A DNA stretch of 6,783 nucleotides from Promethearchaeota archaeon. GTDB taxonomy: Archaea; Asgardarchaeota; Odinarchaeia; Odinarchaeales; JBHLKK01. Both the position numbers and the translations under genes were made by a program. The notes beneath the pieces were generated by a model. It worked only from the letters and a program-made list of their open reading frames with translations. It had not been told where the DNA came from and did no database searches. Numbering within the stretch: position 1 is the first letter of the stretch; each line of letters begins with the position of its first letter. The DNA lies in contig JBHLPL010000004.1 of the NCBI GenBank assembly GCA_048939465.1, positions 42,457 through 49,239 of the forward strand. Reading direction: 5' to 3'. Positions 1-6,783 of this stretch are shown one piece after another.

Positions 1-1
1 C

Positions 2-751
2 AAAGCGAAGGCTGAAGAACTTATCAATATGCAGGATGAGTTTTCAGATAAAACAGGCAATCCCTGTATGATAGACCTAGTAGCTTCGGGTCCAGATGCA
101 GTTAGCAAGGAATTGGAGTTTGTTATGAACGTAACGGATGCTCCTATTCTGATAGATCCCGTCGGCGCGGAGACAAAAAAAGCCGCCATGAACTACATAG
201 AAGAGAAGAATCTAACAGCCAATGTTGTTTACAATTCCATAATCGTGGATACAAAGCAAGAGGAGCTTGATTTAATCAAGAAAGCGGGAATAACCAGCGC
301 AATTCTTCTGGCCTATAGCTCCAGAGTGTTCACCACCCAAGGACGGATTGATGCAGTTAATTCTCTTCTCTCATCTGTAGAGAAGATCGGGATTAAGAAA
401 CCACTGATTGATACGTGTATTATGGACATTCCCAGTCTAGGAATGGGGTGCTACGCTCTTTTTGAACTAAAAGACGAATTTGGAATTCCTATTGGAGGCG
501 GTACGGATAATGCCGTCTCTACATGGAGAGGATTAAAGACTAAGATGGGAAAACAGGCTCGTGAGTCAAGCATTGCAACTGCCGCCGCGGCAGCCGTCAT
601 GGTAGGAGCGGATTTCATACTATATGGACCCATAAAGGTGGCGCCGTACGTTTTTCCGTCAGTAGCCATGATTGATGCAGCTTTCGGTCAGCTGGTTATG
701 GAAAAGGGGAAGATGATTAATAAGGGTCATCCACTGTTCAAGATTCCTTAA
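2..751 (+). CDS. mtrH: MtrH/MtgA-family pterin-binding methyltransferase (tetrahydromethanopterin S-methyltransferase subunit H-like), 5'-partial
   Basis: The frame is open from base 2 (KAKAEELINMQDEFSDKTGNPCMIDLV), so the ATG at 29 is probably internal. MtrH-like segments: 'AEELIN..Q..SDKTGNP', 'NSI', 'LIDT', 'G.G..NA.S.W', 'GADFILYGPI..A..VFP.VAMIDA' and C-terminal 'HPLFKI'. Stop TAA at 749-751. Confidence 0.88.
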   Translation, partial: KAKAEELINMQDEFSDKTGNPCMIDLVASGPDAVSKELEFVMNVTDAPILIDPVGAETKKAAMNYIEEKNLTANVVYNSIIVDTKQEELDLIKKAGITSAILLAYSSRVFTTQGRIDAVNSLLSSVEKIGIKKPLIDTCIMDIPSLGMGCYALFELKDEFGIPIGGGTDNAVSTWRGLKTKMGKQARESSIATAAAAAVMVGADFILYGPIKVAPYVFPSVAMIDAAFGQLVMEKGKMINKGHPLFKIP

Positions 752-817
752 TCAAAATTGAAACTGCAGATGAGTGACTCCTCAATCATTAGAAATCGAA
801 CAATAAGAAGATTCAAC

Positions 818-830
818 GGTTATATTATAA
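818..830 (+). promoter_or_regulatory. Putative archaeal TATA box for the ferredoxin-aor unit
   Basis: GGTTATATTATAA in the 149-bp intergenic gap, about 75-80 nt upstream of ATG 901. The core TTATATTAT is shared with the candidate adh promoter. The BRE match is poor. Confidence 0.45.
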
Positions 831-887
831 GTTGTCTACTCTAAGCTGACGAAAGCGTTAAATTCCGAATATTACATTCCTTCCCGT

Positions 888-894
888 GGGAGAG
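888..894 (+). promoter_or_regulatory. Shine-Dalgarno-like site for the ferredoxin gene
   Basis: GGGAGAG ends 6 nt before ATG 901, which favours ATG 901 over GTG 886 as the start. Confidence 0.55.
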
Positions 895-900
895 TCTGAA

Positions 901-1383
901 ATGACAAAACAAAGGGTTTTAGTGGTTATTCCTAATCGTTGCACTGGTTGCGCTAGATGCGAGATGCACTGTTCATTCTTCCACACAAAAAGTATAGATC
1001 CTACTCAGCGCAGACTCTTTGTGATTCGCGCTGAACCAGATATTGACACTCCGATAGTTTGCACGCAATGTGGTTTATGCATGGCTGTATGTCCTGTTCC
1101 TGGAGCCATGGCAAGGAATAGGAAAACAGGAGCAATAGAGGTAACTGAAAAATGTACGGGTTGTGGACAGTGTGTTCCTGTATGTCCCTACGGAGTAATC
1201 AGCGTACATAAAATTAACAATAAAGCGATAAAATGTGATCTTTGTGGGGGGGATCCTGCGTGTGTAAAAGGTTGCCCCTTCAATGTCATTGAGTATGCCG
1301 ATCAAGAAAGAGCGAATTACATTAAGCGTCTCATCACGGCTAGTGCTGTTAAGGGGGGAATCTACAGAGGTTCAGAATCTTAA
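901..1383 (+). CDS. 4Fe-4S polyferredoxin (DmsB/HybA-like, 16 Cys), probable electron-transfer small subunit of the adjacent tungsten oxidoreductase
   Basis: Four Cys motifs: CTGCARCEMHC, CTQCGLCMAVCP, CTGCGQCVPVCPYG, KCDLCGGDPACVKGCP. It lies 23 bp upstream of aor on the same strand. The ORF track starts at GTG 886, but ATG 901 has the better RBS (160 aa). Confidence 0.9.
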   Translation: MTKQRVLVVIPNRCTGCARCEMHCSFFHTKSIDPTQRRLFVIRAEPDIDTPIVCTQCGLCMAVCPVPGAMARNRKTGAIEVTEKCTGCGQCVPVCPYGVISVHKINNKAIKCDLCGGDPACVKGCPFNVIEYADQERANYIKRLITASAVKGGIYRGSES

Positions 1384-1393
1384 GGGTTCCCGT

Positions 1394-1402
1394 GAGGGGT
1401 TG
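1394..1402 (+). promoter_or_regulatory. Shine-Dalgarno-like site for aor
   Basis: GAGGGGTTG lies 4 nt before ATG 1407. Confidence 0.55.
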
Positions 1403-1406
1403 ACAG

Positions 1407-3302
1407 ATGAAAGAGAAGTGGTATGGGTATGTTGGGAAGATTTTGCGAGTGAACTTGACTGATGGCAAGGTTGTTGAAGAATCCCTCAGCAAGAATGTAG
1501 CCAAAAAGTTCCTGGGATGTGTTGGTTACGCTGCGAAAATACTATGGGATGAGCTTGAACGGGGGGACCCGCTGAGTCCTGAGAACAAACTGATAATTGC
1601 AACAGGACCACTAACTGGAACATTAGAGCCTGGATCGGGAAGCTGGGAGGCTTGTTTCAAATCGCCCTTAACCAACGGTTGGGGAGAGGCCAGATGCGGT
1701 GGCTTTCTGGGTCCGGAGCTCAAGTTTGCGGGCTTTGACATGATCATTATCGAGGGAAGAGCAAAAAACCCGTCATACATATGGATTAATGATGGGGAAG
1801 TCAAGATAAGATCCGCAGAGCACCTGTGGGGTAAAACCACAGTAGATACAGAAAAAGAACTAAAAGAGGAGTTGGGTGATTCTGAGGTTAAGGTTGCTAC
1901 CATAGGTCCGGCAGGCGAGAGTCTCGTTCGCTTTGCATGCATAGTTGCAGATACTGATAGAGTAGCAGGCCGAGGCGGGCCTGGTGCGGTAATGGGATCA
2001 AAGAATCTGAAAGCCGTAGCCGTAAGAGGATCCGGTAAGATTCTGATTTCAGATCCTGAATCCTATTTAGATGTTATCAGAGAATGTGAAACAGCGGTTT
2101 CGAAATCAGATTGGCTCCCTGCTTATCTTCACGGAACCATAAGCTTCATTTCAGGAGCTGATATGGCAGGAGATCTCCCGACCAAATATGGTGCTTCAAA
2201 CAACTGGGGGAAGGGAGACGATATCTACGTTTCATTTGAGAATAACTACTTGATAAAGTCTAGAGCATGTTATGGCTGCGCTGTTGCCTGTGCCAGACTA
2301 TCAGGCGTCAAGACCGCCAAATGGTTTACACCACCTCATGGAGGTCCCGAGTACGAAACCGTTGCAACCTTCACGGCATTCATGTTGCATGAAAACTTAG
2401 AAGCAGTAATTCATGCAAATTATCTGTGTAATCTGCTTGGTATGGACACAATATCTTGCGGAAATGCTATCGCTTTTGCTATGGAATGTTACGATAAAGG
2501 GCTGATTACCAAGAATGACACGGACGATACAGAGCTGAACTGGGGTAACAGTGATTCTATCGTAACCATGGTTAAGAAGATAGGACGGCGAGATGGTTTT
2601 GGAGATTTGCTGGCCGAAGGCGTAAGAAGGGCTGCCAAGAAAATTGGGAAAGGAGCACCTGAACTCGCACTTCATGTTAAGGGACTCGAATTACCTATGC
2701 ACGATCCAAGGGCCGGAAAGAGCTTAGCGCTACAGTATGGAACAGCAAATAGGGGAATGTGTCACATCCATCCGTGCGAAAGCGTGGATGTAGAAGCCTA
2801 TGGTGCAGATTTTGGGCTGATACCTTACGGACTACCGAAGCCACCAGTTGAAAAGTACGGTGAAAAGGGAAAAGCGGTGATAGTTAAGCTCCTGCAGGAT
2901 TACGGTGTGCTTTATGACATCATGGGGGTATGTAAGTTTTTGGCATATACCGGCATGACACTGGACAAATACGCCAAGTTATTAGCAGTCACTACGGGAT
3001 ACGAACTAAGTGAAGTCGAGTTGCTTAATGTTGGCGAGCGTGTGATCAATCTGCAAAGGTGTTTCAACGTCCGAGAGGGCTTAAGGCGAAAGGATGACAT
3101 GATTCCAAAAAGAATCCAAGAAGTCCCCCATTTTGGGGCCTATGCCAATGTAAAGGAAACAGCAATAAGAAACTATAATGCCATGCTTGACGAGTATTAT
3201 AAATTACGCGGATGGAACAGGGAAAACGGCGTTCCCACCCAGGAGAAATTGAAGGAGCTTGGATTAGAAGATGTGTACAGCCAAATCAGTAGACTTGATT
3301 AA
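1407..3302 (+). CDS. aor: Tungsten-containing aldehyde:ferredoxin oxidoreductase family protein (AOR/WOR), 631 aa
   Basis: N-terminal 'YGY.GKILRVNLT', 'DPLSPENKLIIATGPLTG', 'KSPLT', 'GPELKFAGFD', 'IGPAGE', 'GRGG.GAVMGSKNLKA'. [4Fe-4S] ligands CYGCAVAC (2268-2291) plus the distal Cys in 'MGVCKF'. Catalytic-site motifs GPEYET and RGMCH, 'LGMDTIS', and C-terminal 'YY.LRGW..ENGVPT.EKLKELGL'. The substrate is not determinable from sequence. Confidence 0.95.
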   Translation: MKEKWYGYVGKILRVNLTDGKVVEESLSKNVAKKFLGCVGYAAKILWDELERGDPLSPENKLIIATGPLTGTLEPGSGSWEACFKSPLTNGWGEARCGGFLGPELKFAGFDMIIIEGRAKNPSYIWINDGEVKIRSAEHLWGKTTVDTEKELKEELGDSEVKVATIGPAGESLVRFACIVADTDRVAGRGGPGAVMGSKNLKAVAVRGSGKILISDPESYLDVIRECETAVSKSDWLPAYLHGTISFISGADMAGDLPTKYGASNNWGKGDDIYVSFENNYLIKSRACYGCAVACARLSGVKTAKWFTPPHGGPEYETVATFTAFMLHENLEAVIHANYLCNLLGMDTISCGNAIAFAMECYDKGLITKNDTDDTELNWGNSDSIVTMVKKIGRRDGFGDLLAEGVRRAAKKIGKGAPELALHVKGLELPMHDPRAGKSLALQYGTANRGMCHIHPCESVDVEAYGADFGLIPYGLPKPPVEKYGEKGKAVIVKLLQDYGVLYDIMGVCKFLAYTGMTLDKYAKLLAVTTGYELSEVELLNVGERVINLQRCFNVREGLRRKDDMIPKRIQEVPHFGAYANVKETAIRNYNAMLDEYYKLRGWNRENGVPTQEKLKELGLEDVYSQISRLD

Positions 3303-3359
3303 CGTTCATTTACTAATATGGATTCATCGGGTTATTGATTCACGTAAATCGCTTCCCAG

Positions 3360-4535
3360 TTAGTAAGCTCTTTTGAGTATATCCAAGAGACTGTTTTCAG
3401 CCACCATTCTGGGATTTCCAGGTATTTCTGCAGTATCCATAGCCATCTTTGCTATCTTTGGAAGATCGTCCTTCTTAATGCCTATATCTCTCAGAGAAGT
3501 TGGGAGATCTAGATCTTCTATAAACTTCCTCGATGCGTCAATAACTCGCCTTGCAGCTTCTCTTACTGATAGTCCCTCCACTTTTTCTCCCATAGCAGAG
3601 GCTATTTTGGCATACATTTTCGGATTTGCTATGTAATTAAACTCCAGAACAGGTGGCGTAAATACCGCAATGGCTATGCCGTGTGGAACTTCTCCGTACA
3701 AGCCACCGACCGTTTCAGCCAGCGAGTGTATTATGCCACAGTTGGCAAAGTTTTCACATATTCCACCCAGGTGTGCCGCTAACATTACAGCTTCTCTAGC
3801 ATCCATATTGCTTCCATTAGCATAGGCTATAGGGAGGTTCTCAACAAGCAATTCGATCCCATACAGTGCCAGCGATGGGACAAATGGCTTTGCATCAAGC
3901 GCAACACAGGTTTCAAGAGCGTGAGAAAAAGCATCAAATCCTGTTGCTGCGGTCTGTTTTGGGGGTAAAGTCATTGTTAGCAGTGGATCTACAAGAGTTG
4001 CGCTGGCTCCCAGATAGGGGCCACCCGGATATGGTGGAGCCTGCCCCAACGCCATCTTGAAATTCCGATCAGTGTCGGTAATAACTGCCCAATAGTCTAC
4101 TTCACTACCGGTACCTGCAGTTGTGGGAATCGTAATAAGAGGCGTAAGGTGATTCTTTATTGCTTCAGTCTCATAGTCTCGTATTCTGCCGGGATTTGTT
4201 GCTAAAAGCGCCGCCCCCTTACCCGTATCCATAGAACTCCCGCCGCCAATCGCCACGATCAGATCGTATTCTCCCTTCTCAACTTGCTGTGCTGCCCTCT
4301 CTACGACAACATCTGTAGGGTTAGGAATTACCTCGTCAAAGATGTCATATTCAAGGTTCTTAGCATCCAAAGATTCTATTGTGCCTTTGGTAAGACCAGC
4401 CTTAATTACGCCCTTATCTGTTACCATAAGGACTCTCTTAGCCTTCATACTCTCAGCTAGTTCCCCAACCTTTCTGCTTACTCCTCGACCGAATTCTATA
4501 TGTATAGGTAATGTGAAGTTAAAGGGTTCAAACAC
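3360..4535 (-). CDS. Iron-containing (group III) alcohol dehydrogenase, GbsB/choline-dehydrogenase-like, 391 aa
   Basis: Motifs VTDKG, PNP, GGGSSMDTGK, IPTTAGTGSEV, DP..T..LP, TG.DAFSHALE, IIH, PHG and GNPR. The Asp/His/His/His metal ligands are present. GTG start with a strong G-rich RBS. The family call is secure; the subfamily call is tentative. Confidence 0.93.
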   Translation of the reverse strand: MFEPFNFTLPIHIEFGRGVSRKVGELAESMKAKRVLMVTDKGVIKAGLTKGTIESLDAKNLEYDIFDEVIPNPTDVVVERAAQQVEKGEYDLIVAIGGGSSMDTGKGAALLATNPGRIRDYETEAIKNHLTPLITIPTTAGTGSEVDYWAVITDTDRNFKMALGQAPPYPGGPYLGASATLVDPLLTMTLPPKQTAATGFDAFSHALETCVALDAKPFVPSLALYGIELLVENLPIAYANGSNMDAREAVMLAAHLGGICENFANCGIIHSLAETVGGLYGEVPHGIAIAVFTPPVLEFNYIANPKMYAKIASAMGEKVEGLSVREAARRVIDASRKFIEDLDLPTSLRDIGIKKDDLPKIAKMAMDTAEIPGNPRMVAENSLLDILKRAY

Positions 4536-4820: not shown

Positions 4821-5933
4821 TTGACAAGAACAATTACTCTTTGGGAACACGATGTCTTTCCAGACCAAACTGTAAAAGTCAACTTGCCTTTGACAAGCAA
4901 AGTGAATCCGGAAGAATTGAAATCAGAACTCTGTGTTCCAGAGTATGTGGACCTCAGTTATTTTCCTATGCAAAAGGCGATAGTTATTCTGTGGGCCTGC
5001 AAAAATGCTCATGAACTTCATAACATGTATCCTGATGCCATAGATAAAAAGATATCAAAGAAACCCGTTAAGACGCTCCTTTTCGGCGGGGGGGCAATCA
5101 AAATGCTATGTCCGTCTGCCAACGTCAGGGGGTCACCATTCAATAGATCAATGAACGATGTCGACTTCTTGGTATCTCGTAAGCATCATAAGGAATTGAA
5201 AACTGTACTCCTAACCCTGCACGATATCGCCGGGACAAGGTATTTTCACTTCGTGACACCATACGAGGAAAGATATAACACAATGAGACCCGGAAGAGTC
5301 TTGATTAGAACCTTCAACGGATTTTCTGAGGATGGAAAGCCTAAGGTAGGTTTGATGGATATATTATCCGATCGTGTTGAAATGAGACACACTATTGACG
5401 TCAGAGAAGACCTAAAGATTCCTTCTGAGGACTGCGTCTACTCGATCAGCCCCCACAATTTACTCCTAACTAAAGCTCAATTTATCGTGGATTATCCGAA
5501 GAGGGAGAATCTGCCGAAACTTGAGAAAAGCGATCAAACGTACAGAATACTTCCTTATGAGTATTTTAACAAAGACAGAATTATAATAGGCATGGAGGAT
5601 AAAGACTTTCTAGATACAGCTGTTCTTCTTCTAGATCATGACTTCGGGGAGGATATGAATCAAATCAATCTGATCAAGCTTAGGTCGATACTTAAGGATG
5701 GTAAACTAAGATTAACATTTAGATTGAATCTTCAAAATATGCTGAATAATCTAGATAGACTGAGAAAACGTGGAGCTACCGATTCTCAGATAAGCACAAT
5801 AGAGGGTAAGATTGAGTCTATCTTCAAAGAGATACCTGAGGCAGATTTCAAATGGAACAAGCCGTGGTGGAATACCCATATCGAAGTACCAGATACTAGC
5901 GGAGGATGGGCGGGGGTAACAACGGGTAGGTGA
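4821..5933 (+). CDS. Uncharacterised protein with a DNA polymerase beta-superfamily nucleotidyltransferase-like signature, 370 aa
   Basis: Long ORF with a TTG start (first start after in-frame TGA 4779). hGG motif 'LLFGGGAI' (5085-5093), 'NDVDFLV' (DxD at 5157-5165), third acidic strand 'MDILSD', then 'EMRHTID', 'LLLTKAQF', 'MEDKDFLD' and C-terminal 'KPWW'. The CDS is solid; the function is inferred. Confidence 0.7.
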   Translation: MTRTITLWEHDVFPDQTVKVNLPLTSKVNPEELKSELCVPEYVDLSYFPMQKAIVILWACKNAHELHNMYPDAIDKKISKKPVKTLLFGGGAIKMLCPSANVRGSPFNRSMNDVDFLVSRKHHKELKTVLLTLHDIAGTRYFHFVTPYEERYNTMRPGRVLIRTFNGFSEDGKPKVGLMDILSDRVEMRHTIDVREDLKIPSEDCVYSISPHNLLLTKAQFIVDYPKRENLPKLEKSDQTYRILPYEYFNKDRIIIGMEDKDFLDTAVLLLDHDFGEDMNQINLIKLRSILKDGKLRLTFRLNLQNMLNNLDRLRKRGATDSQISTIEGKIESIFKEIPEADFKWNKPWWNTHIEVPDTSGGWAGVTTGR

Positions 5934-6107: not shown

Positions 6108-6782
6108 CTAACCCACAGTAAGATAATAGTTTTTGATCTTTGCTTCGCTTAGATTGACTACGGCACCCAGAAGAGATCCTTGTTCATAAGAGCTGCCAGG
6201 ATTTATACACAGAGTACGACCAAACTGAGACTCCCCTTTGCCTTCGTGAATATGGCCGAATAATCCAAGGAGTGGCTGATACTTTTTTAGAGCATCTCTG
6301 ACTGCAACACTTCCGACAGGAATTGTGACGCGTCCACCATACTTCGGTCTTAGGTTTTCATCAAGCTCAGGAGCTTCATCAAGCAGTGACTTATACGGTG
6401 GTGCATGAATGTTGAAAATGGCATTCGGCATATCTTGGACTTGAGATGTCATTGCCTCTATTCTTTCTGCAATCTCTTCTTCACCACATTCCCTGTATGT
6501 ATGCCAAGGTGTGGGGTTTGTCCAACCAGTGCTTATCATCTCATGGTATTCGTCAATTTTGAATACACGACCTTCTGCCAGATTAACTTTCTTTGCTTTC
6601 TCAATCATTGCATCTATTTCGAATTCATCATCATTACCAGGACATACATAGCACTGGATTTTTGTGTCTTTTAGTTTTTCATCAGCAATCTGCATCCATT
6701 TTTTTACTCTTTCGAGCATAAAATTCAAAAAAAGCTCATCGATCTTCTTTGGTTCAGCCTTCAATTCTTCAATCTCTTTGTA
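6108..6782 (-). CDS. Calcineurin-like metallophosphoesterase (Icc-related, COG2129-like), 5'-partial
   Basis: The frame is open to the window edge (YKEIEELKAEPKK...), so the TTG at 6764 is probably internal. Motifs 'CPGNDD' (6627-6638), 'GWTNPTPW.T.RE', 'HAPP', 'GS.AVR', 'LFGHIHE' (6246-6257) and 'INPGS.Y'. Stop TAG. Confidence 0.88.
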   Translation of the reverse strand, partial: YKEIEELKAEPKKIDELFLNFMLERVKKWMQIADEKLKDTKIQCYVCPGNDDEFEIDAMIEKAKKVNLAEGRVFKIDEYHEMISTGWTNPTPWHTYRECGEEEIAERIEAMTSQVQDMPNAIFNIHAPPYKSLLDEAPELDENLRPKYGGRVTIPVGSVAVRDALKKYQPLLGLFGHIHEGKGESQFGRTLCINPGSSYEQGSLLGAVVNLSEAKIKNYYLTVG

Positions 6783-6783
6783 A

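Follow-up and report, generated by a model that had tools for sequence, protein, structure and literature searches.

A candidate gene cluster for anaerobic choline-type breakdown in archaea

A probable oxygen-independent gene set around a choline-dehydrogenase-like enzyme

We found that an Asgard archaeon (Promethearchaeota archaeon, Odinarchaeales) carries a gene cluster that pairs a choline-dehydrogenase-like enzyme with a tungsten-type aldehyde oxidoreductase (AOR) and a vitamin-B12 methyl-transfer system. The gene set recurs in shuffled order in other sediment archaea and points to an undescribed oxygen-free way of consuming choline-like compounds. The analysed stretch of DNA, here called the window, spans 6,783 nucleotides (assembly GCA_048939465.1, contig JBHLPL010000004.1, positions 42,457–49,239). 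The initial annotation had described four adjacent genes, encoding an alcohol dehydrogenase (ADH), an AOR with its Fe-S partner and a pterin methyltransferase, and our analysis confirmed that all four are present. Its interpretation, in which choline is oxidised to betaine with an AOR in place of betaine aldehyde dehydrogenase and the betaine methyl groups are passed to a pterin, was partly supported: the core idea is well supported by comparative genomics, whereas betaine as the methyl donor is not.

Gene content of the window

The first feature (1–751, plus strand; reading frame 2–751) is the 3′ part, 249 codons, of an MtrH-like methyl-corrinoid:pterin methyltransferase gene (PF02007, E 4e-61). 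The window begins right after a 10-N scaffold gap that cuts this gene. The two flanks of the gap overlap by 5 nt on a contiguous relative, and contigs from three sequencing runs, one of them from an independent study, leave out exactly these 15 letters. The gap is therefore an assembly artefact, and the gene is an intact ORF of 299 codons starting 163 nt before the window, at position 42293 of contig C84. The PF02007 score rose from 207 bits for the fragment to 259.6 bits when the gene was read through the gap. The best PDB match is 8Z9U_B (211 bits), ahead of MtgA 6SJ8 (129 bits) and MtrH of the Mtr complex, 9QTP (120 bits); against the curated MtgA model the protein is far below the cut-off (154 against 550). 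The gene is not part of an mtr operon, since neither MtrA nor McrA was found in this 91%-complete genome and the gene lies divergent from a corrinoid protein and a non-pyrrolysine MttB.

A spacer of 134 bp (752–885) with a TATA-like TTATATTATAA at 820–830 separates the MtrH-like gene from the next gene, and a separate promoter for the ferredoxin and AOR genes is an inference from sequence alone. The gene at 886–1383 (plus strand) encodes an AorA-like polyferredoxin with four CxxCxxCxxxC motifs and 16 Cys, the putative Fe-S electron-transfer subunit of the AOR; relatives call the ATG at 901 as its start (160 aa). Its best PDB matches are Fe-S subunits of AOR complexes, namely 8C0Z_C (103 bits), 9MQX_E (98 bits) and the WOR5 partner 6X6U_B (80 bits). 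It lies 23 bp upstream of the AOR gene (1407–3302, plus strand), which encodes a 631-aa tungsten-type aldehyde:ferredoxin oxidoreductase resembling AOR sensu stricto, with AFOR_N and AFOR_C domains (E 4e-81 and 4e-121) and a CxxCxxxC motif at 288–295. It scores 447 bits against 9MQX_D, 445 against 1AOR, 331 against FOR and 251 against WOR5.

The ADH gene (3360–4535) encodes a 391-aa group III Fe-ADH (PF00465 and PF25137) of an archaeal clade nearest to the GbsB model, a candidate choline or amino-alcohol dehydrogenase. The initial annotation needs correction here, as the ADH gene lies on the minus strand, convergent with the AOR gene and 57 bp from it, so the four genes are not one operon. Together with the spacer between MtrH and ferredoxin, this means that co-transcription is not shown. 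The six GbsB-type motifs named in the initial annotation are all present: GGGSSMDT at 97, GSEVDYWAVITD at 143, RNFK at 157, GGP at 171, HSLAETVGG at 270 and GNPR at 373.

The remainder of the window holds two further genes. A 370-aa ORF of unknown function (4821–5933, plus strand) belongs to no Pfam family and gave only a faint NTP_transf_5 match (E 0.003). It is a distant paralogue of the nucleotidyltransferase (NTase)-fold family that accompanies the ADH in other clusters, with a BLASTP match (E 3e-4) and shared motifs to the unknown protein unk264 of one such cluster (L171, below). The last gene (6108–6783, minus strand) is the 3′ part, 224 codons, of a metallophosphoesterase gene whose 5′ end lies beyond the contig end (317 aa in relatives). 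Its Metallophos_3 and Metallophos matches are weak, but it is 57% identical to the phosphoesterase of L171 and 49% identical to that of a Halobellus limi cluster.

The locus in relatives and in independent clusters

The initial annotation had named in advance genes that should accompany such a pathway, and these predictions held. A 494-aa non-pyrrolysine MttB and a corrinoid protein lie directly upstream, a RamA/RACo activase is encoded elsewhere in the genome, and a transporter, an APC permease, belongs to the locus. The gene order is MttB–corrinoid protein, then divergently MtrH–ferredoxin–AOR, followed by the convergent ADH, the 370-aa unknown and the phosphoesterase. The genes are co-conserved in congeneric metagenome-assembled genomes. 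In contiguous relatives (loci L162–L165), in which the ADH is 90% and the AOR 91% identical (the AOR figure to L162), the 370-aa ORF is conserved at the same position, and the locus continues through the metallophosphoesterase, an APC permease, an NTase-fold unknown and a second MttB. Contigs C84 and C41 of the genome studied here are collinear with that relative. The genome also has Mch, an MTHFR-like gene and GcvTHP, although the glycine cleavage genes are not at this locus.

Using the ADH as bait, we identified independent clusters with ADH homologues of about 60% identity that hold the same gene set in other orders, often with glycine cleavage genes. Locus L169 reads MttB–MttB–corrinoid protein, divergently MtrH, then convergently AOR and ferredoxin, with ThiS, the unknown, ADH and an ABC transporter. 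Locus L171 contains GcvP1P2, MttB–MttB–corrinoid protein, unknown–ADH–GcvT–GcvH, AOR–ferredoxin, phosphoesterase and permease. Locus L168 (Bathyarchaeota) contains ADH–GcvTH, GcvP and corrinoid protein–MttB–MttB, while loci L179 and L184 contain permease, phosphoesterase, AOR–ferredoxin, ThiS, unknown and ADH. The MttB proteins form two conserved orthogroups (MttB1/x, 47–53% identity; MttB2/y, 40–54%); identities were 56–66% for the corrinoid protein, 57% for the phosphoesterase, and 41% each for the permease and the unknown. The cluster AORs belong to different AOR subclades, so recruitment of AOR was repeated.

These data bear on whether two unrelated modules simply lie side by side, a quaternary-amine methyltransferase system (MttB, corrinoid protein, MtrH) and a general ADH–AOR pair for fermentation balance or aldehyde detoxification. 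In favour of this reading, the genome has five AOR paralogues and a second ADH–AOR pair on contig C3, the ADH is on the opposite strand, and AORs have broad aldehyde specificity (PMC12096430). The AOR–MtrH link is also not general: across 60 other Asgard MtrH-like loci an AOR lies within 2 kb in only 3, and of 80 AOR loci from metagenomes only 3 carry methyltransferase genes. However, the same ADH clade co-occurs with ferredoxin–AOR in four independent gene orders, with the MttB pair and corrinoid protein in three, and with an MtrH-like gene in two, and the ADH on C3 is of a different subfamily (AdhE-like, 380 bits). The ADH clade is flanked by an aldehyde-oxidising enzyme in 9 of 10 distinct contexts, ALDH or AOR according to lineage. 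We therefore consider a meaningless adjacency unlikely.

Haloarchaeal counterparts of the ADH

Haloarchaeal orthologues of the ADH (50–54% identity) sit with betaine-aldehyde-dehydrogenase (BADH)-like ALDH genes. One context is IclR–ADH–ALDH–BCCT, where the best model for the ALDH is BADH (508 bits) and the ADH scores 325 bits against GbsB. In Halobellus limi, an APC permease, unknown, phosphoesterase and ALDH lie divergent from the ADH, and homology of the permease, unknown and phosphoesterase to those of the anaerobic clusters was confirmed. Elsewhere, divergent ALDH and ADH genes occur with Ugp-like ABC transporters and, in a single case, with a sulfatase-family gene. A further, aerobic-type cluster contains a sarcosine-oxidase-like protein, GcvT and MTHFR. 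A tree of the ADH separates the ALDH-partnered and AOR-partnered clades within one archaeal family. This alternation beside orthologous ADH genes is the pattern expected if AOR replaces the betaine aldehyde dehydrogenase in anaerobes.

GbsB (NF053866) is the top curated model for the window ADH (328 bits) and for six of seven homologues scored. The score is nevertheless 220 bits below the equivalog cut-off of 550, and the margin over the lactaldehyde reductase and ErcA models is only 30–50 bits. A different functionalised alcohol, such as isethionate/sulfoacetaldehyde (the alternative offered in the initial annotation by analogy with WOR5) or 1,3-propanediol/lactaldehyde-type compounds, rather than an amino alcohol, might be considered. 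The SarD, lactaldehyde reductase and ErcA models score only 48–52 bits below GbsB, and the best solved relatives of the ADH are a methanol dehydrogenase and DhaT. However, SarD scores 276 against a cut-off of 700, the AOR is far closer to AOR sensu stricto than to WOR5, and no sulfite-handling or sulfonate genes were seen in any cluster. The neighbours are betaine-, choline-, glycine- and methylamine-related throughout (BCCT, BADH-like ALDH, sulfatase, GcvTHP, MttB and the sarcosine-oxidase-like protein). This alternative is not favoured and appears very unlikely.

A proposed pathway and the order of its steps

With moderate confidence, we propose that the window is the centre of a locus of about 18 kb for oxygen-independent catabolism of choline or a closely related methylated amino alcohol. 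In this model, an APC permease takes up the compound, and a metallophosphoesterase and an NTase-fold protein probably free the amino alcohol from a phosphorylated head group, although the NTase-fold family also occurs in unrelated contexts. The GbsB-like ADH would oxidise the alcohol to the amino-aldehyde (betaine aldehyde if the substrate is choline), and the AOR with its polyferredoxin would oxidise the aldehyde to the acid (glycine betaine), yielding low-potential electrons and replacing the NAD-dependent betaine aldehyde dehydrogenase of aerobic haloarchaea. The two MttB paralogues, one corrinoid protein and the free-standing MtrH-like enzyme would move N-methyl groups onto a pterin, H4MPT or THF, with the RamA-type activase encoded elsewhere. 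The demethylated product, glycine, would enter the glycine cleavage system. Gene identities, locus structure, co-conservation and the alternation of ALDH and AOR are direct results of our analysis, while every enzymatic activity, every substrate and the order of oxidation and demethylation are inferred from sequence.

The MttB sequences do not support one detail of the initial annotation. Both orthogroups have Thr, Phe and Gly/Ala at MtgB positions Y97, R312 and F356, and thus lack three of the four glycine-betaine-binding residues of MtgB; only H348 is kept. R312, which binds the acidic group, is reported as conserved in all characterised acidic-substrate members (PMC13080624), so betaine bound as in MtgB is unlikely. 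Betaine as the methyl donor and the order of steps are therefore unproven.

It is possible, though we hold this only tentatively, that the overall chemistry is the same but demethylation comes first. The MttB paralogues would then take methyl groups from choline or N-methylethanolamines, which are non-acidic amines, and the ADH and AOR would oxidise the resulting (methyl)ethanolamine through aminoacetaldehyde to glycine or sarcosine, which enters glycine cleavage. In line with this, both orthogroups lack the acid-binding Arg, true TMA MttB has Tyr at the position of R312 (PMC13080624), MttB2 is closer to true MttB (309 bits) than to MtgB (275 bits), MttB1 scores 456 bits on the TMA model TIGR02369, and glycine cleavage genes sit inside the clusters. 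WOR5, an AOR-family enzyme, is described as oxidising the amino-aldehyde formed from taurine to the acid (PMC12096430). On the other hand, the haloarchaeal ADH orthologues occur without any MttB in choline-to-betaine-type contexts with BADH-like ALDH, BCCT or sulfatase genes, and one homologue sits with sarcosine-oxidase-type enzymes, which act after oxidation to the acid. H348, a carboxylate ligand in MtgB, is invariant in both orthogroups, whereas true MttB has Tyr there, and demethylation of tertiary or secondary amines without pyrrolysine has no characterised precedent in this family.

Comparison with known systems

The proposed oxidation resembles the GbsB/GbsA pathway of Bacillus subtilis from choline through betaine aldehyde to glycine betaine, and the betCBA logic of proteobacteria. 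It differs in that the NAD-dependent aldehyde dehydrogenase is replaced in the anaerobic archaeal clusters by a tungsten-type AOR with an AorA-like Fe-S subunit, and the product is apparently catabolised rather than stored as an osmolyte. ‘Candidatus Formimonas warabiya’ DCMF is proposed, from growth data and its genome, to use choline anaerobically without the CutC/trimethylamine route, by oxidation to betaine followed by stepwise MttB-family demethylation to dimethylglycine and sarcosine (PMC8163858). That route is bacterial and uses a choline dehydrogenase and an NAD-type betaine aldehyde dehydrogenase, ending in sarcosine reductase, whereas the archaeal system described here has an AOR and glycine cleavage.

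With the MtgB/MtgC/MtgA glycine betaine:THF methyltransferase system of Desulfitobacterium hafniense, and the relatives MtcB, MtpB, MtyB and MthB of Eubacterium limosum, the locus shares a non-pyrrolysine MttB-family methyltransferase, a cognate corrinoid protein and an MtrH-fold methyltransferase, with a RamA-type activase in the genome. Apart from the replaced betaine-binding residues, it differs in that two conserved MttB orthogroups share one corrinoid protein and the MtrH-like enzyme is nearer to 8Z9U_B than to MtgA. The methyltransferase half of the locus is the published, predicted non-methanogenic methylotrophy module of MttB-like, MtbC-like and MtrH genes in Asgard, Brockarchaeia and Culexarchaeia (Valentin-Alvarado et al. 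2024, PMC11291895; De Anda et al. 2021). The 2024 paper names Odinarchaeia among the holders and notes a gcvH neighbour, but treats AORs separately, as general aldehyde-oxidising enzymes, and does not describe a link to a GbsB-like ADH, an AOR, a phosphoesterase, an NTase-fold protein or a permease. A full-text literature search combining choline, MttB and aldehyde ferredoxin oxidoreductase found no paper.

Finally, the AOR part can be compared with AOR complexes that have a dedicated Fe-S subunit, such as Aromatoleum aromaticum AorABC (PDB 8C0Z) and Pyrococcus furiosus WOR5 with its polyferredoxin (PDB 6X6U). No FAD subunit (AorC) is encoded at the locus, and the proposed substrate, an amino-aldehyde, would be new for the AOR sensu stricto clade. 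As in these complexes, the catalytic subunit is encoded directly after a polyferredoxin with four predicted [4Fe-4S] clusters, and several of the related clusters also carry a MoaD/ThiS-like gene.

Gene content and the assembly gap

The window holds the four genes described in the initial annotation: an MtrH-family ORF open at its 5′ end (2-751, plus strand), a 165-aa polyferredoxin (Fd; 886-1383, plus strand), a 631-aa AOR (1407-3302, plus strand) and a 391-aa Fe-ADH (3360-4535). That observation is confirmed, except that the ADH lies on the minus strand, convergent with the AOR. All six ADH motifs named in that annotation are present. Two further ORFs belong to the locus: a 370-aa ORF with no family (4821-5933, plus strand) and the 3′ part of a metallophosphoesterase (6108-6783, minus strand). 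A sigma-70-type promoter and terminator scan gave no more sites than shuffled sequence and does not apply to archaea.

The window is the last 6.8 kb of contig C84 of this genome and starts right after a 10-N scaffold gap (C84:42447-42456), with the 5′ end of the MtrH-like gene lying just before it. On a contiguous relative, the two flanks overlap by 5 nt, and contigs of three public sequencing runs, one from an independent study, skip exactly these 15 letters. The gap is therefore an artefact and the gene is intact at 299 codons, although gene callers will split or truncate it here.

The wider locus and its genome

Divergent from the MtrH-like gene lie a corrinoid protein (Corr) and a 494-aa MttB-family gene with no internal stop, followed by unrelated pyrD and pyrK genes. 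A 125-aa ORF with no family lies between this MttB (MttB1, C84:39959-41440) and pyrD (C84:39551-39928, minus strand; 17052-17429 in the extracted locus L002). It has no counterpart in the gene calls of the relatives; in one of them, L008, the pyrD frame is simply longer.

Three Asgard MAGs and one SRA assembly carry a 90%-identical ADH and show the complete contiguous locus. MttB and Corr are divergent from MtrH-Fd-AOR, which converges with the ADH; there follow the 370-aa ORF, a phosphoesterase, an APC permease, an unknown of about 305 aa, a second MttB and a 436-aa ORF. In the genome studied here the second half, including the second MttB (MttB2, C41:17750-19195), is carried by contig C41. 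C84 and C41 are collinear with the relative at 86% nucleotide identity, with about 0.45 kb unassembled between them. Two genomes of the same genus (G001 and G002) were uninformative for the ADH, because their contigs break inside the locus. The closest MAGs are deposited as Hodarchaeota or Promethearchaeota, both Asgard. The locus DNA occurs in mangrove and other sediment metagenomes, whereas no RNA data set holding it was listed among public runs.

The genome is 91% complete. Searches for McrA and MtrA returned no match, while two MtrH paralogues, three non-pyrrolysine MttB genes, one corrinoid protein, a RACo/RamA activase, Mch, an MTHFR-like gene and GcvT/H/P1/P2 are present. The genome also encodes five AOR paralogues and a second ADH-AOR pair on contig C3 (C3:768-4754), in tandem on one strand and flanked by an SCP2-like gene and a flavodoxin (SCP2-ADH-AOR-flavodoxin). 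The ADH of this pair is AdhE-like, a different subfamily. A similar ADH-AOR tandem occurs in the metagenome locus L109, and the C3 pair is probably an ethanol/acetaldehyde-type module.

Family assignments

The ADH is an iron-containing (group III) alcohol dehydrogenase, with the Fe-ADH N- and C-terminal domains (PF00465 and PF25137, each at 160 bits) and the nucleotide-binding motif GGGS at residue 97. Of 17 Fe-ADH models, the GbsB choline dehydrogenase equivalog (NCBIfam NF053866) scored best at 328 bits, ahead of ErcA (280), lactaldehyde reductase (278) and SarD (276), but below its curated cut-off of 550 bits. This cut-off is tuned on Bacilli, and archaeal orthologues with a BADH/BCCT context score the same (322-325). 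The best solved relatives of the ADH are a methanol dehydrogenase and DhaT.

The AOR carries AFOR_N and AFOR_C domains (272 and 405 bits) and the CxxCxxxC [4Fe-4S] ligands, as CYGCAVAC at residues 288-295. It is closest to AOR sensu stricto (1AOR at 445 bits, 9MQX at 447), ahead of FOR (331), while WOR5 scored 251 bits with only a partial alignment (6-437). The isethionate alternative raised in the initial annotation by analogy with WOR5 was rejected on these scores and on that of SarD. The best solved relatives of the polyferredoxin are the Fe-S subunits of AOR complexes, namely AorA 8C0Z_C, 9MQX_E and the WOR5 partner, which identifies it by similarity as the electron-transfer subunit of the AOR.

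The MtrH-like protein is nearer to 8Z9U_B (211 bits) than to MtgA 6SJ8 (129) or the MtrH of the Mtr complex (120); no paper was found for PDB 8Z9U. Scored on the 249-aa fragment, it reached 154 bits on the MtgA equivalog NF047990 (cut-off 550) and 174 bits on the mtrH equivalog TIGR01114 (cut-off 271). With neither MtrA nor McrA found in the 91%-complete genome and the gene divergent from Corr-MttB, a complete mtr operon, a condition set beforehand as refuting the proposed module, was rejected. The clade of this MtrH-like protein extends beyond Asgard archaea. In a Brockarchaeota MAG (JAFNJA010000052.1) a 51%-identical gene sits directly after a RACo/RamA activase and near a corrinoid protein and a GcvT gene, another link between this clade and glycine cleavage. 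Bacterial genes 45-50% identical to that of the window occur in Planctomycetales and Phycisphaera MAGs, the Phycisphaera one next to a URO-D (MtaA/MtbA-like) gene, so that the clade is shared between archaea and Planctomycetota.

The corrinoid protein scored 231.4 bits on the methyltransferase cognate corrinoid protein model TIGR02370, over the cut-off of 215.3, and carries B12-binding and B12-binding_2 domains (PF02310 at 104 and PF02607 at 70 bits).

Conservation of the gene set

Asking whether the adjacency of these genes is meaningful, we first used the AOR and the MtrH-like gene as baits, with negative results. The AOR has no orthologue above 51% identity in 400 genomes of the phylum. In all six genomes of one Asgard genus (G123-G128; e.g. 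G123:C1:2064201-2066036) the best AOR match is read through one in-frame TAA, which could be the end of the gene, an intron or recoding; tRNA-type introns have been reported for Asgard protein genes. Among 60 other Asgard MtrH-like loci, only 3 have an AOR within 2 kb and 5 within about 7 kb, which is near chance for genomes with 5-15 AOR copies. Of 80 AOR loci from metagenomes, only 3 carry MtrH, Corr or MttB genes. A general AOR-MtrH link across the phylum was therefore rejected. One case did stand out: the closest Fd-AOR subclade is convergent with an MtrH-like gene in three loci (L035, L086 and L127).

The decisive evidence came from using the ADH as bait. Homologues at about 60% identity lie in clusters with the same parts in other orders. 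In locus L169, MttB-MttB-Corr is divergent from MtrH, which converges with AOR and Fd on the other strand, followed by ThiS, the unknown, ADH and an ABC transporter. L171 contains GcvP1P2, MttB-MttB-Corr, unknown-ADH-GcvT-GcvH, AOR-Fd, phosphoesterase and permease. L168, from a Bathyarchaeota, contains ADH-GcvTH, GcvP and Corr-MttB-MttB, while L179 and L184 contain permease, phosphoesterase, AOR-Fd, ThiS, unknown and ADH; the taxonomic origin is established for none of L169, L171, L179 and L184. The ThiS/MoaD-like gene of 96-97 aa stands beside Fd-AOR in three of these independent clusters (L169:6565-6855, L179:6556-6849, L184:6522-6812), as in bacterial aor operons, whereas none was seen next to Fd-AOR in the window. 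The two MttB genes form two orthogroups conserved as a pair, and the corrinoid protein, phosphoesterase, permease and unknown are orthologous as well. The AORs fall in different AOR subclades, and were therefore recruited more than once into an otherwise orthologous set.

Alternation of ALDH and AOR

In haloarchaea the orthologous ADH (50-54% identity) is always beside an aldehyde dehydrogenase. In Haloterrigena the order is IclR-ADH-ALDH-BCCT, where the best models of the ALDH are betaine aldehyde dehydrogenases (508 and 496 bits) and that of the carrier is a betaine-uptake BCCT. Natrinema has IclR-ADH-ALDH. In Halobellus limi, APC permease-unknown-phosphoesterase-ALDH is divergent from ADH-IclR, with all four neighbours confirmed as homologues of the Asgard genes. 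ALDH and ADH are divergent in Haloarcula and a brine MAG, with Ugp-like ABC transporters, and in Halalkaliarchaeum, with a sulfatase-family gene, which recalls betC. One further homologue sits with a sarcosine-oxidase-like fusion protein, GcvT and MTHFR. In the genome studied here, the partner of the ADH is an AOR and the carrier an APC permease.

In a tree restricted to archaeal homologues and Bacillaceae plasmid homologues, without B. subtilis GbsB, the ALDH-partnered ADH sequences form one clade. The AOR/MttB-partnered ones form its sister clade, and the lineage of the window branches just outside. All are apart from the Bacillaceae plasmid homologues and the C3 paralogue. The occurrence of AOR or ALDH beside this ADH clade was counted on ten contexts rather than genome-wide. 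The alternation of ALDH and AOR is the pattern of non-orthologous displacement, with the same alcohol-oxidising module joined to an NAD-type ALDH in aerobic halophiles and to a ferredoxin-reducing AOR in anaerobes. It supports the central inference of the initial annotation, that an AOR takes the place of a betaine aldehyde dehydrogenase, but the interpretation as a whole is only partly supported.

The MttB active site

MtgB binds betaine through Y97, F356, H348 and R312, and R312 is conserved in all characterised members that act on acidic quaternary amines (PMC13080624). At these positions MttB1 has Thr, Gly, His and Phe, and MttB2 has Thr, Ala, His and Phe. The same pattern (Thr, Gly/Ala, His, Phe) holds in the 10 of 11 aligned sequences from L162 (a contiguous relative), L168, L169 and L171 that cover these columns. 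They are not MtgB-type. Nor are they pyrrolysine-containing trimethylamine methyltransferases: the frames are uninterrupted, Ala or Val stands at the pyrrolysine position, and MttB1 scores 456.5 bits on TIGR02369 against a cut-off of 525.

The methyl donor may instead be a non-acidic amine such as choline itself, which would put demethylation before oxidation. Alternatively, betaine may be bound in another way, since H348 is kept while true MttB has Tyr there. E. limosum MthB uses phosphocholine, but it too keeps the Arg. On present evidence the order of steps is unresolved.

A possible oxygen-free route from choline to glycine

The most far-reaching reading, which we consider unlikely though not excluded, is that abundant sediment archaea (Bathyarchaeia-type lineages and this Asgard genus) run a complete oxygen-free route from lipid-derived choline to glycine. 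In this view, a new protein with a predicted nucleotidyltransferase fold and a metallophosphoesterase would release the head group, and a GbsB-like ADH and a tungsten AOR would make glycine betaine while reducing ferredoxin. Two new MttB orthogroups that lack the acid-binding Arg would then remove the methyl groups through one corrinoid protein and a free-standing MtrH onto H4MPT, and glycine cleavage would complete the route. The gene identities, the locus structure and its recurrence rest on sequence similarity and gene neighbourhood, whereas the enzyme activities (including choline oxidation by the ADH), substrates and the order of steps are inferred.

Choline and glycine betaine are major nitrogen-rich osmolytes and lipid head groups in sediments. 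Their known anaerobic fates are CutC cleavage to trimethylamine, direct demethylation and betaine reduction, and these control how much substrate reaches methylotrophic methanogens. A conserved archaeal cluster that oxidises the alcohol with an ADH and a ferredoxin-reducing tungsten AOR, and sends the methyl groups into the pterin pool, would be a new trimethylamine-free sink for choline that competes with methylotrophic methanogenesis, held by Bathyarchaeia-type archaea and an Asgard lineage. It would also give the first physiological substrate context for an AOR subclade, define two uncharacterised MttB orthogroups with an unusual active site, and assign a pathway to a large family of hypothetical proteins. 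The genes are few and clonable, which makes the proposal directly testable. The MttB-like/MtbC-like/MtrH module of Asgard archaea is already published as a prediction (PMC11291895), and an anaerobic choline-to-betaine-to-demethylation route has been proposed for a bacterium that uses an NAD-type aldehyde dehydrogenase (PMC8163858). Literature searches found no paper that joins choline, MttB and AOR.

Predicted nucleotidyltransferase-fold proteins and the phosphoesterase

The unknown protein of about 260-312 aa that accompanies the ADH has no Pfam family. Structure prediction folds it confidently (pLDDT 82) into a Pol-beta-type nucleotidyltransferase fold, the matches being MenT, ANT(2″)-Ia and LnuA with modest TM-scores. 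The 370-aa ORF of the window is a distant paralogue. Together with the phosphoesterase it may release or activate a phosphorylated head group, although this is speculation. With the unknown as bait, two long Bathyarchaeia contigs showed unrelated contexts, so the family is broader than the cluster. In the genome studied here, the metallophosphoesterase and the predicted nucleotidyltransferase-fold unknown each have four paralogues, which recur as neighbouring pairs (C77:32431-34196 and C98:7811-9774). On contig C98 a permease-like gene lies beside them, and on C77 the pair is about 5 kb from another AOR. They may form a two-protein unit of unknown function.
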